A stretch of DNA of 64,000 bases from a virus (taxonomy: Duplodnaviria > Heunggongvirae > Uroviricota > Caudoviricetes), in IMG/VR virus record IMGVR_UViG_3300032167_000002, positions 152,286-216,285 of that record; one strand, written 5' to 3'. Position numbers and translations under genes: made by a program. A model generated the notes under the pieces. The model was not told the origin of the DNA. It did no database searches and was given only the letters and a program-made list of their open reading frames with translations. Positions 313 through 61,769 of the stretch are shown piece by piece. Positions within the stretch are counted from its first letter, which is position 1; each line of letters begins with the position of its first letter.

Positions 313-344
313 TATATTATAACAAATTTAATTTAAAAAATCAA
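313..344 (-). promoter_or_regulatory. Stereotyped sigma-70 promoter for the leftmost partial gene
   Basis: + strand tatatattataacaaatttaatttaaaaaatcaa. Confidence 0.55.
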
Positions 345-838
345 CTAATTCTGTCATATTGCCAGAACTGATAAGTTAAGTCGTTATATGTTAGTAGCTG
401 TCCGCACGCAGCAGGCGCCCACTCTTCCGATTCATCTAGATTCGGAAAATAAGTATCAACATTATCGTGGTCTTTATAAATTTTTGTCACATAAACACGG
501 TCACAAACAGAAAGGAATTCTTGGTATATTGAGCCACCGCCAATAATAAACCATTCTTCATCATCATCAGACAAAGAAACTCGTACTTTAGCTTCATCCA
601 TTGGAATGCTAAAAGTCATGTTTCCAAGAGGACCTCTTGGCTATCTGGAGATAACAATATTTAGTCTATCTTTAAGTGGCTTTTGGGGTAATGAATCCCA
701 GGTTTTTCTTCCCATCACTACAACATGGCCAGTAGTGAGTGCCTTGAAATACTTCAAATCTTCTGGAATATGTTCCAATAGGTCTCCATTATAACCAATT
801 CCCCAATTATTATCAACAGCAACAATTGCAGAAATCAT
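341..838 (-). CDS. folA: Dihydrofolate reductase with a single in-frame TAG at 641-643
   Basis: Track ORFs 641..838 (MISAIVAVDNNWGIGYNGDLLEHIP...NIVISR) and 341..619 (...FIIGGGSIYQEFL...) are in the same frame (both codon tops congruent to 1 mod 3). They are separated only by TAG (+ strand cta at 641-643). The TAG aligns with Q in E. coli DHFR NIILSSQPG. The true stop is TGA at 341. Confidence 0.8.
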
Positions 839-839
839 T

Positions 840-1745
840 TTAAATTCCCAACTCCAATTTCAATTGTGGCTTCATAGGTTCATAATTCTCCATAGTGAAG
901 TCATCAATTGTCATTTCAAAAAAGTTAGTTGCGTTTGGATTCAATACGAGCATTGGCTTGCGTTGCTTTTTCCATTCTTCGGGGTCTGACTGGAATTTCT
1001 CCCAATCAGCGTTAGATTTTTCATCAAAGCGACGAAGCATTTCATCAGCAGCCTCAAGATGACGGTCATAAATCTGCTCATTAGCAACAACGTGAGTAAA
1101 AACGCCGGGCTGATAACCAGTATGACGAGCAATCATCATTAGTAATGCAGCATATTGAATTTCATTAATTCCACCGGGGCCAGAAGCAGTAAGCATATCA
1201 CCACTACGCTGAACAAGCATCATATCCAGGTACTCGCCACGAACATTCCAAATAGTAAGGAACGCACATGGAGCTAAGCCAGGAGTCTCATGCAAGTCAG
1301 TTTCTTGCCATAGTGAAACAATCTTGCGGCGACCATATGGGTCATTTTTAATATCTTCAATCAAATTATTGATTAAATCATAGCGGTCTACGGTTGCACC
1401 ATATCGTTGTCCGATAGTGCCATCGCCAATATCCCATTCATCCCACCAGGTAACTCCACGCTCATGCATCTCTTTGATGTTATTGGTTGGATGCTGATAA
1501 ATCGTGAAAATTTCTCTAATACCAGTTTTCCAAGCCTGGGGTCTTAGAGTGCAAATGGGGAAATTACCTCTACTCAAATCATAAGTTCTAAAAGTATGAT
1601 TTACAGAGTAGGTGTGTGCGGGAGTGCCGTCCGCATAATGAGGGCGGGGATTTTCATCCTTATATCCGTATTCTTTGATTTCCTTAATCATTGAATACAT
1701 ATACTGGTCAGCATTAGAAATAATTTTCATATTCTCAATCCTCAT
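840..1745 (-). CDS. thyA: Thymidylate synthase family protein (ThyA or dNMP hydroxymethylase-like)
   Basis: TS-fold motifs LAPCAFLTIWNV and LDMMLVQRSGDMLTASGPG. TAA stop at 840. Adjacent to DHFR. Confidence 0.8.
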   Translation of the reverse strand: MRIENMKIISNADQYMYSMIKEIKEYGYKDENPRPHYADGTPAHTYSVNHTFRTYDLSRGNFPICTLRPQAWKTGIREIFTIYQHPTNNIKEMHERGVTWWDEWDIGDGTIGQRYGATVDRYDLINNLIEDIKNDPYGRRKIVSLWQETDLHETPGLAPCAFLTIWNVRGEYLDMMLVQRSGDMLTASGPGGINEIQYAALLMMIARHTGYQPGVFTHVVANEQIYDRHLEAADEMLRRFDEKSNADWEKFQSDPEEWKKQRKPMLVLNPNATNFFEMTIDDFTMENYEPMKPQLKLELGI

Positions 1746-2007
1746 TTGACAAACTATATCCAGTTAATTTACAATCAATGTAATTTTGAACAAAAACTTC
1801 CAGTTCATCAATCATTACATCACCTTCGTACTCGCCATTAAAGAGCTGACTATAACTGATAAATTCAATACCAGTAATGCCATATGCGTGAGCTTTTGCT
1901 CTCATGGCATGTGGATTCATACAGGCAATTGCGGAATTAGTTTCCTTTGCCAAAAGCATCAATCTACTTGTCTTGCCGGAACTACGGCTATCAATAATAC
2001 GATACAT
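1735..2007 (-). CDS. Hypothetical small protein with a P-loop-like SSGKTS motif
   Basis: 90-aa track ORF. TGA stop at 1735. Confidence 0.35.
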   Translation of the reverse strand: MYRIIDSRSSGKTSRLMLLAKETNSAIACMNPHAMRAKAHAYGITGIEFISYSQLFNGEYEGDVMIDELEVFVQNYIDCKLTGYSLSNED

Positions 2008-2020
2008 AAATTAACTCCTT

Positions 2021-3013
2021 TTATTTAATACTATATCCAAACTCTTTTGCTTTAAAATAATCTTGCCAGTAATCTTCTCTCTCGTCCAGTCTGGAACGGT
2101 CGCACTCTTCAACAACCTCGAAAGTGAAGTTCTCGGGTCCGGCCGCAATCATTGCAGGATATAATTTATTACGAGTGGGTGCGTCTGCACCTACACCTCG
2201 TTTAATATGCTATTTCCAGCGGTCTGCTAAATTGGCAGCCTAACCAACATAACATTTTCCAGAAGAGATTTCAGTAATTTTATAAATTCCAGTATGAACA
2301 CCAGAACCAATAACTCTACCAATCATATCTGTCGTTGGTTTTTCATAATAGCATTTCCAAATAACCTTATTTAAAGGTTCTTTATCACGCAAATAAGGTT
2401 CTACCTCACGCAGAAGCTCAATTTCGTGGAGGTCTGCGGCAGAAAGCTAAATGCGATAGTAGTCTTGTTGGTCTTTCATTTCTTCTGCTCTCTTGGCTGC
2501 GGCAACTGCGGCATCGTTTGTAGCACGCATAATAGCCACATTTCCTTCAAGAGCTTTATACTATTCCATCAAGCCAGCTACGGTTTCTTGATACTATACT
2601 TCAAAAGAAGCGACATTCTTTTGATATTTCTATGCTTCAAGCTCCAAAGAGCGAGCCAGATTTTCTTGAGCGACTTCCATTTTTGAACTATAAAATAAAT
2701 CTGCGGCTTCTTGAGCCTGCTTTTCCATAGCTGTAATACTACTATTTAATGTGTTAATCTATTCAATGGTTGAGTCCTTTTGGAGCAACAACCTACTATT
2801 TTCTTCTGTTAGTCGTTTAGTTTCAGCTTCAAGCCATATGCGGCCCTCTTCGGCTAAACGATTCTACTCCTAAATTCTTTCGTTCTCTTTGGCAGTCTGC
2901 GCATCCAACTCCAGCGCCGCGTGAATGCGGGGACGCAGAATGCGATATACAACATATCCCGTAATAAGGGACGACAAGATGAACGAAATTAGAAAAATAA
3001 GTAATTCCACCAT
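2021..3013 (-). CDS. Membrane-anchored coiled-coil protein with a C-terminal GIY-YIG nuclease domain; 9 in-frame TAG codons
   Basis: Manual translation of the minus strand gives one 331-codon frame from ATG (3013) to TAA (2021). N-terminal transmembrane helix MVELLIFLISFILSSLITGYVVY, then about 180 aa of coiled coil, then GIYKITEISSGKCYVG[TAG]AANLADRWK[TAG]HIKRG...YWQDYF. TAGs at + strand cta 2210-12, 2240-42, 2447-49, 2561-63, 2594-96, 2630-32, 2759-61, 2864-66, 2870-72. The first aligns with Q or S of the YIG(Q/S) motif. No standard-code ORF of 60 aa or more exists here. Confidence 0.7.
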
Positions 3014-3026
3014 ATGGAAGAAAAAT

Positions 3027-3054
3027 GGGGTAAGATATTTAATATCTTACCCCT
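3027..3054 (-). terminator. Rho-independent terminator for the 3070..3345 transcript
   Basis: Minus-strand GGGGTAAGATATT/AAATATCTTACCCC perfect hairpin followed by ATTTTTCTT. Confidence 0.65.
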
Positions 3055-3069
3055 TAGTATATGTCAAAA

Positions 3070-3345
3070 TTACTCAGCAGCTTCTTCAGTTGCGTCAGGG
3101 TCGAAGCTCATGCCTGCAGGAGTCAGAGACAGGAACTTAACCTGCTTGTGAGTACCATCCTCTAGCTCGATTTCAGCGGGAGTACGAACACCCAAGCCCT
3201 TACGCTGAATAGCGGAAGTAAAGATGCCATCAACAGAGCGCTTCTCTAGACCCAGAGCAGCAGCAACGTCAGCAGCAGTTACGTTCTCGCCGTTAATCTC
3301 CTTCAAATAATTCAGAACCTTCTTGGAATTTTCCTTCATAGCCAT
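3070..3345 (-). CDS. Hypothetical small protein, possibly DNA-binding
   Basis: 91-aa track ORF MAMKENSKKVLNYLKEING.... TAA stop. Confidence 0.35.
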   Translation of the reverse strand: MAMKENSKKVLNYLKEINGENVTAADVAAALGLEKRSVDGIFTSAIQRKGLGVRTPAEIELEDGTHKQVKFLSLTPAGMSFDPDATEEAAE

Positions 3346-3454
3346 AGTAAATAATCTCCTTCTTAATAAATAATATTTTTTTAGTTTATATTTTCTAACC
3401 TCTCGGTTATGTAAATATTATATCAAAAAATTTTTGAAAAGTCAAGAATTTTTT

Positions 3455-60941: not shown

Positions 60942-60972
60942 TGAATTTCATTCCTTTCTTTATCTTATAGAT

Positions 60973-61003
60973 ATATTATATCATATTTTTTTATAAAAAT
61001 CAA
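60973..61003 (-). promoter_or_regulatory. Stereotyped sigma-70 promoter
   Basis: + strand atatattatatcatatttttttataaaaatcaa. Confidence 0.6.
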
Positions 61004-61092
61004 ATAAGATATAAAGGACTAGGCACATCTAAAAGACTTTTTTATGCTTGTTTTGGAGACAAGTGAGTTTACCATTTCTCAATCTGCCCGAG

Positions 61093-61118
61093 TGGGCGGA
61101 GTAGGACTCGAACCTACA
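61093..61118 (-). ncRNA. tRNA 3' minihelix fragment (T-arm plus acceptor 3' strand, no CCA)
   Basis: GTAGG TTCGAGT CCTAC TCCGCCC A, preceded by the leader motif. Confidence 0.35.
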
Positions 61119-61224
61119 ATTATTCTTTAATAGAATAAAATTGCTGTGTGTGCCTATGTAATTTGATATAAAACCCAGAGTCCCGTAGGCGAAGGTAGCA
61201 TATGTCTACCCATCTGAGTATGAT

Positions 61225-61304
61225 CTGGTCTGAATGAAAGGACTTGAACCTTCGGCCTCTACCACCCCAAGGTAGCGCTCTAGCCAAACTGAGCTACATC
61301 CAGA
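61225..61304 (-). tRNA. tRNA-Pro (GGG)
   Basis: CTGGATG TA GCTC AGTTTGGCT AGAGC G CTACC TTGGGGT GGTAG AGGCC GAAGG TTCAAGT CCTTT CATTCAG A CCA. Confidence 0.7.
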
Positions 61305-61418
61305 TATATGGCAGGCTGAAAACTACTCCCTGCCGGTCGGGCATAACTCCGAAGTTGTTAGTATATGCGATTGGGTCGGACAACCCTATGACTTAGCGAT
61401 AGCAAACCTCATTGAGGC

Positions 61419-61496
61419 TGGTCCGAGTGGAGAGACTCGAACTCTCGGCCTCGTGATCCCAAATCACGCGCTCTAGCCAAACTGAGCTACACCCGG
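61419..61496 (-). tRNA. tRNA-Pro (TGG)
   Basis: CCGGGTG TA GCTC AGTTTGGCT AGAGC G CGTGA TTTGGGA TCACG ... CACTCGG A CCA. Confidence 0.75.
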
Positions 61497-61503
61497 ATAT
61501 AAT

Positions 61504-61580
61504 TGGTCGGGATAGGTGGGATCGAACCACCGACCTTACGATTATCAGTCGTACGCTCTAACCATCTGAGCTATATCCCG
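61504..61580 (-). tRNA. tRNA-Ile (GAT)
   Basis: CGGGATA TA GCTC AGATGGTT AGAGC G TACGA CTGATAA TCGTA ... TATCCCG A CCA. Confidence 0.75.
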
Positions 61581-61738
61581 TTATTCAAGGCTCAAGCTTT
61601 TACTAAAGAAGCGGGAATCCAACCCGCGATTTTTCCGTGGAAGGGAAATGTCCTAGCATTAGACTATTCTTCTAAGCGAAGTTTGCTGTAAGAGCCTTTA
61701 GTATGAGAAACTATATCCGATAGTTCCTTTACTTGTAT

Positions 61739-61769
61739 ATATATTATAACAAATTTTTTGAAAATTGTC
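61739..61769 (-). promoter_or_regulatory. Stereotyped promoter variant (-35 TTGACA)
   Basis: + strand attataacaaattttttgaaaattgtcaa. Confidence 0.5.

Follow-up and report, generated by a model that had tools for sequence, protein, structure and literature searches.

The 64,000-nt stretch of phage DNA analysed here (positions 152,286 to 216,285 of the IMG/VR virus record IMGVR_UViG_3300032167_000002; hereafter the window) comes from a jumbo phage of ~200 kb, a member of an uncultured gut and rumen family, and all its genes lie on the minus strand. Our analysis indicates that most early, metabolic, tRNA and non-coding RNA units of the window start from one near-identical promoter, which on sequence grounds appears to be strong and of the housekeeping type. 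The reading that we consider probable joins this promoter to its surroundings: the copies would be fired by the host sigma-A (and probably by the phage's own sigma factor too), terminators fused to them would insulate the units, the resulting cassettes would act as patches of homology, and the shared -35/T-tract sequence would be under a double constraint. A megablast search with 20 kb of the window revealed no near match among deposited phages.

A repeated promoter of the housekeeping type

The pattern TTGAYW-N17-TATAAT occurs 28 times in the window, always on the minus (coding) strand, against 0.09 occurrences expected from dinucleotide-preserving shuffles. Twenty-six of the matches are intergenic promoters; the other two lie within open reading frames (ORFs), at 788-816 (in the DHFR gene) and 54773-54801, and are probably chance or internal sites. 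No further promoters were detected on either strand by a scan of the window with a position weight matrix (PWM) and spacers of 16-18 nt. All 26 intergenic copies have an exact TATAAT as the -10 element and a spacer of 17 nt; the -35 element reads TTGATT in 19 of them, TTGACT in four and TTGACA in three. The extended -10 (TGn) is present in 20 of the 26, three others carry the TG one base nearer to the hexamer, and TGnTATAAT as such is found at 22 sites on the minus strand and two on the plus strand (4.3 expected for both strands together). In 17 of the 19 coding units a start codon linked to a ribosome-binding site (RBS) lies 24-46 nt past the -10, the remaining two distances being 71 and 88 nt, and six promoters have non-coding RNA downstream: tRNA-Leu, tRNA-Gly, tRNA-Thr, a four-tRNA operon, a YrlA-like element followed by two tRNA-CUA genes, and a ROOL RNA. 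Judged by these features, the repeats are most likely sigma-70/sigma-A housekeeping-type promoters of the extended -10 subtype.

An earlier note on this DNA, made from the sequence alone, had listed about 25 such copies. All 25 of its coordinates, which give the start of the plus-strand block and so fall ~30 nt below the -35 coordinate used here, correspond to pattern matches, to which we add an intergenic copy at 17330-17358. Its picture of a textbook sigma-70-type promoter with a 17-nt spacer and an extended -10 is supported, and its many short units on a single strand are borne out, as all copies lie on the coding strand and divide the region into short units. The motif search that it had proposed, run here on the window as pattern and PWM scans, confirms the listed sites and finds none on the plus strand. 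It was thus right about the hexamers, the spacer length, the TG and the promoter nature of the copies; it had missed the conservation of the spacer sequence, of the 5' untranslated region (5'UTR) and of the RBS, and also the six copies predicted to drive tRNAs, ROOL and the YrlA-like RNA.

Class A and generic copies

Fifteen copies, all in the interval from 21 to 61 kb, differ from the 29-mer TTGATTTTTATAAAAAAATATGWTATAAT by no more than three mismatches (0 expected) and are termed class A. They share a stereotyped block of ~60 nt, TTGATTTTTATAAAAAAATATGWTATAAT-ATATATRTAAGATAAAGAAAGGA, with conserved spacer, discriminator, whole 5'UTR and RBS; the extended -10 reads TATGnTATAAT and is followed by ATATAT-R-TAAGATAAAGAAAGGA as far as the start codon. 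The 11 generic copies combine consensus hexamers with variable spacers and leaders, and include the promoters of the DNA ligase gene, the gyrB-gyrA operon, a gene related to the major vault protein (MVP) and several tRNA units. The full cassette, from the stop codon through hairpin, promoter and leader to the ATG, measures 72-92 nt. We also considered the spacer palindrome TTTTTATAAAAA as an operator, which is unlikely: the boundary between the T-run and the A-run of the spacer moves by one base between copies, which argues against a base-specific operator there.

Terminator hairpins fused to the -35 element

To locate hairpins we folded the 50 nt upstream of each -35 element and carried out an independent terminator scan. 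Seven promoters, designated here by their upstream coordinate (23102, 27269, 30695, 36995, 38218, 40804 and 42211), are preceded by a perfect GC-rich hairpin 0-2 nt from the -35, with dG values of -13.8 to -20.4. These putative terminators lie on the minus strand, as do the promoters and genes of the window listed below, at 23103-23125 (gap 0, dG -14.6), 27270-27298 (gap 0, dG -19.2), 30698-30721 (gap 2, dG -18.2, at the end of the MVP-like gene), 36996-37019 (gap 0, dG -13.8, after the unit of the sigma factor and a gp5.9-like gene), 38219-38248 (gap 0, dG -17.8), 40805-40835 (gap 0, dG -20.4) and 42213-42239 (gap 1, dG -19.5), the first five of them also recovered by the terminator scan. The top five terminator-like hairpins on the minus strand between 20 and 40 kb, with the tail TTGATTTTTA, are exactly those that abut a -35 element. 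Two other promoters are preceded by a hairpin at some distance: 45679, with a hairpin at 45691-45717 (11 nt upstream of the -35, dG -18.9), and 11950, with one at 11982-12011 (32 nt upstream). The features of an intrinsic terminator, namely a GC-rich hairpin and a T-tract located after a stop codon, were found together at eight copies 0-11 nt from the -35, and also at 11982-12011.

In the seven abutting cassettes the terminator T-tract is made of the -35 hexamer itself and the start of the spacer (TTGATTTTT, seen for instance behind 23103-23125). The -35 in the form TTGATTTTT is plausibly constrained by a second job as T-tract; this tract is interrupted by GA, so that the predicted terminator efficiency is uncertain. 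Related phages show the same arrangement, with an abutting hairpin at 41% of class A copies vs 4% of TTGAC-type copies and 1% of random positions. The earlier note had placed most copies directly after a terminator hairpin. Hairpins are indeed present at some copies, yet a clean one precedes just eight or nine, about one third of all (8 of the 11 copies between 21 and 47.6 kb), and the overlap between T-tract and -35 had escaped it. In the tRNA region the promoters are preceded by tRNAs or other structured RNA instead of terminator hairpins. Two GC-rich, apparently structured segments, 47574-47630 and 55767-55840, share GCGGCCGCCC and lie directly upstream of promoters 47573 and 55766, in the place where other copies carry the terminator hairpin.

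Spread of the cassette among relatives and movement of a gene unit

The exact class A 35-mer is present in 53 stretches of IMG/VR contigs (contigs of up to 192 kb) and in 23 contig stretches of metagenome-assembled genomes (MAGs) from ruminant and human gut. The cassette block stands in front of unrelated genes in dozens of related phages known from metagenomes; its ~55 nt align at 85-98% across loci, whereas the flanking genes are 65-85% identical in nucleotide sequence or unrelated. The sigma protein of the window occurs unchanged on contigs of ~200 kb, and all jumbo relatives examined have a short sigma factor and the motif together. In the 7 kb beyond the window end (L150:1-6960) we found five more class A promoters, one of which feeds the tRNA array at 61.9-63.7 kb, and 18 tRNA genes, which with the 24 of the window (50363-63674) give a total of more than 40. 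Relatives L137 and L142, whose sigma factor is only ~50% identical, retain TTGATT, the same T/A spacer pattern with small variation, and TATGnTATAAT, and their leader has drifted.

Exact or near-exact class A copies also occur in two small phages, L005/L081 (at 8798) and L022/L144 (at 4843 and 1931), which have no genes in common with the window. Relatives of their terminase or portal are mostly found on contigs of 35-45 kb; the possibility that L005 and L022 are other parts of the jumbo genome was rejected, as both are small phages. No sigma homologue was found in the sampled sequence of these two phages, whose contigs are incomplete.

Comparison with relatives further indicates that cassettes can exchange the genes between them. 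One unit has moved between cassettes: it consists of promoter 33313, the gene at 30734-33250 and the hairpin 30698-30721. The gene encodes a protein of 838 aa with the major-vault-protein shoulder and repeat domains (Pfam MVP_shoulder, 2e-23), which is also present in the distant relative L137. In the window the unit occupies 30.7-33.3 kb, in L049 and L016 it immediately precedes the unit of promoter 45679, and in L018 it is absent, with a small lipoprotein-like ORF and a different hairpin in its place. According to the alignments the crossover falls inside the promoter block, since L049 follows the context of 30695 upstream of it and that of 45679 downstream. Such a move of a gene unit between cassettes, shown for one unit by comparison of the sequences, matches the modular shuffling described for PeSL cassettes (see below).

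Among other relatives, L153 carries tail-fibre-like genes on the opposite strand beside gyrB, without a sigma-A-type promoter in the 2 kb examined, and L154 and L155, which represent a more distant relative, contain no recognisable structural genes. At L012:8479-8778 and L142:1395-1473 we noted a group I intron beside a DnaB-like helicase gene and a skipping-rope RNA inside a tRNA array.

The phage sigma factor

The earlier note had reported an ORF of the sigma-70 family at 37241-38161. The family assignment stands, as Pfam detects Sigma70 r1.2, r2, r3 and r4, and the start has to be moved: the likely initiation codon is the ATG at 38143, with a GGAG RBS, rather than the TTG at 38161, which gives a protein of 300 aa (37241-38143) with SigA/RpoD-like regions 1.2-4.2. 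Its alignment with Firmicute SigA structures (E 1e-80) runs from one end to the other, and over regions 1.2-4.2 it is ~50% identical to bacterial SigA. Region 1.1 is missing, with just 26 residues ahead of region 1.2, and the protein scores below the RpoD equivalog cut-off (NCBIfam RpoD, 330 bits vs 572). A tblastn search with the sigma sequence gave only hits of at most 52% identity, several of which resemble host rpoD within phage records. In E. coli numbering, the protein keeps W434, Q437, E458, E585, R586, R588 and Q589 and carries the substitutions W433Y, T440S, H455N and R584K. All four changes are kept in relatives at 71% identity; within the set of the 150 nearest cluster representatives, short sigma proteins (273-342 aa) are almost the only ones to share them. 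R584 reads position -31, H455 and E458 read the TG motif, and the changes R584A/C alter or relax the preference at -31 (PMC2613000). A covariation of K584 with T at -31 (as in TTGATT) was considered and rejected, since L140 and L141 have a short sigma that keeps R584 and still use TTGATT promoters. From its sequence the phage sigma appears to be a truncated primary-type, SigA/RpoD-like factor and not a divergent phage sigma.

The presence of this gene had been taken to imply a second promoter class. A SigA-like sigma with apparently near-native DNA-reading residues is expected, however, to read the same -10, TG and TTG motifs, and the gaps without a promoter revealed no second recurring motif within the window, which does not include the late and structural genes. 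Many such gaps prove to be coding when TAG is taken as a sense codon, or contain small ORFs, and the others have no motif in common. As to the two candidate regions that had been named, the sequence at 12766-12927 leads into an ORF for a small, holin-like membrane protein and has no more than a degenerate copy resembling the -10, and 46000-46200 contains a terminator (46118-46141) and GC-rich structured sequence. A sigma gene in a phage thus does not by itself imply a new promoter class, an easy misreading that can now be corrected.

Which polymerase reads the promoters, and what the cassettes may do

The phage probably infects Firmicutes of the class Clostridia. In its cassettes a stop codon is followed by the GC-rich hairpin, the T-tract/-35 TTGATTTTT, the 17-nt T/A spacer, TATGnTATAAT, the ATATAT discriminator and a purine as the predicted start, and then by a leader of 18-30 nt, TAAGATAAAGAAAGGA, with the RBS and the ATG. 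We infer that the host RNA polymerase with host sigma-A would fire these promoters from the start of infection, including that of the phage sigma gene, and that the phage sigma most likely reads the same promoters later on. The hairpins may insulate the units as leaky or full intrinsic terminators. The 60-90 nt block is near-identical at many sites and across relatives, and would accordingly offer a homology patch for insertion, deletion and movement of gene units.

We favour host sigma-A as a sufficient reader, because the sigma gene's own promoter belongs to class A, because the motif fits the Gram-positive TRTG-type extended -10, and because class A copies occur in the two small phages, in which the sampled sequence shows no sigma homologue. 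Several points weigh against the picture drawn here. TTGATT agrees with the TTGACA consensus at only four of six positions, and the conservation of the spacer and of TTGATT exceeds the known needs of sigma-A, so that another reader (the phage sigma, a spacer-binding regulator or the beta' zipper) may be involved. The contigs of the small phages are incomplete and a sigma gene could sit in their unsampled parts. The evidence for shuffling comes mainly from one gene unit. As regards the host, the MAG bins that contain the motif are taxonomically inconsistent (Clostridia, Alistipes, Treponema and Methanobrevibacter), which suggests mis-binned phage contigs. Finally, what the sequences show directly is the motif (its statistics, its strand and where it lies), the hairpins, the recombination joint and the conservation among relatives, whereas the holoenzyme used, promoter strength and activity, start sites, and termination with its efficiency are deduced from these.

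It is possible, but in our view unlikely, that class A is a dedicated (middle) class of the phage sigma: host sigma-A would fire mainly the TTGACA/TTGACT copies and class A weakly, and the phage sigma would then prefer class A, the distinction residing in the 3' half of the -35 and in the spacer rather than in the -10, and being made through the absence of region 1.1 and through R584K, H455N and W433Y. In line with this, the sub-classes segregate in relatives, where a downstream ATAT accompanies TTGATT in 133 of 173 cases and TTGACA in 5 of 34, although the manner of retrieving the loci and the shared ancestry of the cassettes account for part of this association. R584 contacts -31, where class A has a T, and R584A/C change the preference at this position (PMC2613000); K584, Y433 and S440 are almost confined to the short sigmas (273-342 aa among the 150 nearest cluster representatives), every jumbo relative examined combines such a sigma with the motif, and spacer shape has been reported to modulate the effect of region 1.1 (PMC4496709). 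On the other hand, with a class A promoter in front of the sigma gene itself the host polymerase has to use class A on at least one occasion, the expected covariation breaks down in L140/L141, where R584 goes with TTGATT, and the small phages use class A with no sigma homologue in their sampled sequence.

A more far-reaching version, which we likewise regard as doubtful, is that the short SigA-like factor (without region 1.1 and with Y433, S440, N455 and K584) and the invariant TTGATT-T/A-tract-TATGnTATAAT form a co-evolved pair across a superfamily of gut and rumen jumbo phages. If this were true, the phage sigma would mimic the host primary sigma and keep one promoter class running while the host sigma-A is displaced or inactivated, selectivity would come from spacer shape and the 3' half of the -35 and not from a new -10, and the small co-resident phages with the same cassette would be borrowers.

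Another explanation, to which we give little credence, is that the conservation of spacer, discriminator and leader has no function and that only the hexamers and the TG matter, the copies being duplicates of recent origin whose likeness gene conversion or recombination maintains. Within one genome the copies are indeed nearly identical, recombination between cassettes is evident, and the one-base shift of the T-run/A-run boundary speaks against a base-specific operator. The T/A spacer pattern, however, persists at ~50% identity of the sigma and other proteins and in unrelated small phages, whereas the leader drifts in distant phages (AAATTATAAAAG vs ATATATGTAAG), which suggests that different segments are under different constraint; moreover, the T-run that directly follows the hairpins could plausibly act in termination. 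That the repeats are not promoters at all, but sites of replication, packaging or a recombinase, or a miniature mobile element, is very improbable: dispersed, highly conserved repeats at rearrangement joints might suggest it, but the exact TATAAT, the 17-nt spacing, the TG, the co-orientation with genes, the fixed short distance to RBS and ATG, and the tRNAs and ROOL downstream argue for promoters, and there are no terminal inverted repeats, target duplications or associated transposase.

Units headed by the individual promoters

The class A copies, each identified by its match to the 29-mer, begin with 21185-21213, which has no mismatches and precedes an 80-aa ORF starting at 21156, 28 nt past the -10. 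The next, 23074-23102, is adjoined by its hairpin. Promoter 27241-27269 heads an NAD-salvage unit (an 82-aa ORF, NAPRTase and the following genes), and 30667-30695, at which the alignments place the recombination joint of the MVP unit, heads a unit with nicotinamidase, phosphoribosyl pyrophosphate (PRPP) synthetase and Sir2 genes. The region 24169-30641 as a whole encodes a cluster for NAD+ supply and use, with an NAD synthase, NAPRTase, an isochorismatase/nicotinamidase-like protein, a PRPP synthetase-like protein, a YqeY-like protein and a Sir2-family deacylase. Near this cluster lies a set of genes resembling RNA repair functions: Thg1-like, RNA ligase, RNase T-like exonuclease, nucleotidyltransferase-like and metallophosphatases. 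Promoter 36967-36995 precedes the unit from RNase T to RNA ligase, 38190-38218 is the promoter of the sigma gene itself, 40776-40804 heads a unit with a 61-aa ORF, a phosphoesterase and the Thg1-like gene, and 42183-42211 a metallophosphatase unit. Promoter 45651-45679 is the copy joined to the MVP unit in L049. The gene at 46506-47456, which encodes a DUF2828 protein, is preceded by 47545-47573, with 88 nt between -10 and start codon. The remaining class A copies are 51705-51733 (a 67-aa ORF and a tRNA-Lys region), 53701-53729 (a structured leader and tRNA-Leu), 58448-58476 (ROOL RNA), 59054-59082 (the TTGACT variant; ORFs of 60 and 117 aa) and 60975-61003 (a 101-aa T4_Y16D-like ORF).

The generic copies were identified by the pattern match. 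The one at 316-344 is a consensus promoter with an extended -10, is conserved in L152/L153 and precedes an ORF that runs past the start of the window. Promoter 3417-3445 (TTGACT-17-TGaTATAAT) has an A-rich tract upstream, 3679-3707 (TTGACA-17-TATAAT) precedes a 63-aa ORF, and 5725-5753 (TTGACA-17-TATAAT) the gene for NAD-dependent DNA ligase. The gyrB-gyrA operon is headed by 11922-11950, behind the hairpin 11982-12011, and the mobile MVP-shoulder unit by 33285-33313 (TTGATT, with the TG displaced by one base). In the tRNA region, 53108-53136 precedes a leader and tRNA-Gly, 54043-54071 (TTGACT) the YrlA-like RNA and the two tRNA-CUA suppressors, 55738-55766 a structured leader and tRNA-Thr, and 61743-61771 (TTGACA) a tRNA operon (Gly, Ile, Pro, Pro).

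The additional copy, 17330-17358 (TTGACT-17-TATAAT), which was absent from the earlier list, heads a TAG-containing unit that includes PhoH and lies upstream of the lysin gene. The lysin (12928-15321; 777 aa, multi-domain) has no sigma-A-type promoter of its own, a strong terminator hairpin (15297-15321) is located 35 nt ahead of its start codon, and in-frame TAG codons are most abundant in the unit upstream, which promoter 17358 heads. From these three features we suggest that lysin expression may depend on terminator read-through and amber suppression.

TAG recoding and non-coding RNAs

The DHFR, PhoH, GIY-YIG, HNH and other genes stay open past TAG and stop just before the next gene, as expected if TAG is read as sense; the regions concerned are 341-838, 2008-3069, 15337-16581, 16869-17297, 19490-20203 and 59474-59878. 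The GIY-YIG gene contains nine in-frame TAGs, which account for an apparent 'non-coding' gap of 1 kb. TAG aligns with Gln in the relative L152, and of the two tRNA-CUA genes (53742-53891) one has a Gln-like acceptor end. Recoding of TAG to Gln has been published for gut phages (PMC10879173), and the above observations point to its use in the window, with the consequence that gene calls made there with the standard code are partly wrong.

The ROOL RNA (Rfam RF03087) is full-length (57682-58295, 328 bits) and starts ~145 nt downstream of promoter 58448-58476, which would transcribe it via this leader. The YrlA-like (Y RNA-like) element at 53892-54036 (core 53921-53990) scores below the Rfam cut-off (E 0.0018); it shows a T-arm, a loop-closed acceptor stem and a D-arm in permuted order inside a long 5'/3' stem, and sits between promoter 54071 and the suppressor tRNAs. 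The gene for the DUF2828 protein is in its neighbourhood. Within the tRNA array there is also a drum RNA (62889-62999, 78 bits). Immediately upstream of promoter 51733, at 51749-51836, we found a partial match to the 3' part of OLE RNA (53.4 bits vs a cut-off of 50), which may be a false positive or a structured RNA of another kind.

Four leaders in this region (53599-53694, 53892-54036, 58296-58441 and 55607-55731) share a hairpin of the form AAAGGC(N3-4)ACAGCAA...GCCUUG, which begins ~13 nt past the predicted start and ends with its 3' arm just before the tRNA or ROOL. Compensatory changes (GGCAG/CUGCC and GGCUCA/UGAGCC) are found in it, and it could serve as a processing or stabilising hairpin or define a small RNA family. 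The leader after promoter 55766 additionally contains a T-arm-like hairpin (GCGGUUCGAAUCCGC).

Implications

A predicted map of promoters, terminators and leaders is now available for a family of gut and rumen phages of ~200 kb that is abundant and uncultured. Members of this family carry ROOL, drum and Y-RNA-like RNAs, more than 40 tRNAs and amber-suppressor tRNAs, and in the map the non-coding RNAs follow the same, presumably strong promoter that heads the early protein genes. The cassette of ~90 nt, which comprises terminator, strong promoter and RBS, is also a compact candidate part for Clostridia genetics.

Comparison with known systems

Gram-positive sigma-A promoters with a -16 'TRTG' extended -10 were reportedly described by Voskuil and Chambliss in 1998, and the early promoters of the Bacillus phages SPO1 and phi29 are examples of this type. 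The copies in the window resemble them in the TTGACA-like -35, the 17-nt spacer, TATGnTATAAT, the AT-rich surroundings and, as far as can be predicted, the use of the host holoenzyme at the start of infection; they differ in that most copies have TTGATT and in that the spacer sequence is conserved across genomes. Phage sigma factors with promoter classes of their own are known from SPO1 (gp28 and gp33/34) and T4 (gp55). The window likewise carries a sigma-70-family gene among early or middle genes, but its product is rpoD-like, most of the contact residues are kept and no separate promoter consensus was found; in type it resembles the annotated rpoD-like gene of the jumbo cyanophage MaAM05 of Microcystis.

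Repeated strong early promoters and promoter-terminator cassettes are already known. The morons of lambdoid phages are genes flanked by their own promoter and terminator (PMC2839356), and the units described here are similarly self-contained and transcriptionally insulated, as far as the hairpins suggest. Morons, however, lack a common conserved linker, whereas in the present phages exchange seems to take place in the conserved cassette itself.

The closest parallel is provided by the PeSL cassettes of T4-type phages, composites of a strong sigma-70-like promoter and a stem-loop that mediate insertion, deletion and replacement of the genes which they flank (Arbiol et al. 2010, PMC2839356; Comeau et al. 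2014, PMC4122927). Both are intergenic composites of ~100 bp, with a sigma-70-consensus promoter, a stem-loop terminator or attenuator, a Shine-Dalgarno sequence and a start codon; both recur in many copies among small accessory genes, with stem-loops that may overlap the -35; and in both the joints of indels and replacements between related phages fall inside the cassette. The differences are equally clear: a Firmicute-type jumbo phage stands against T4-like myoviruses of Gram-negatives, the hairpin lies upstream with its T-tract forming the -35 itself, the spacer and leader vary far less between copies, and the cassettes also drive, by our prediction, tRNAs and large non-coding RNAs in a phage that has its own SigA-like sigma. 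Membership in the PeSL family would imply a T4-like phage with homologous early promoters, and the window has no DNA match among deposited phages and a gene content that is SPbeta-like or Firmicute-like. The present cassettes are thus an analogue of PeSL in an unrelated lineage and not members of that family. What is new in them is the uncultured Firmicute jumbo-phage family in which they occur, the unusually tight overlap of terminator and -35 and the unusually conserved spacer, and they extend the PeSL idea of cassettes as recombination linkers from Gram-negative T4-like phages to a Firmicute lineage.

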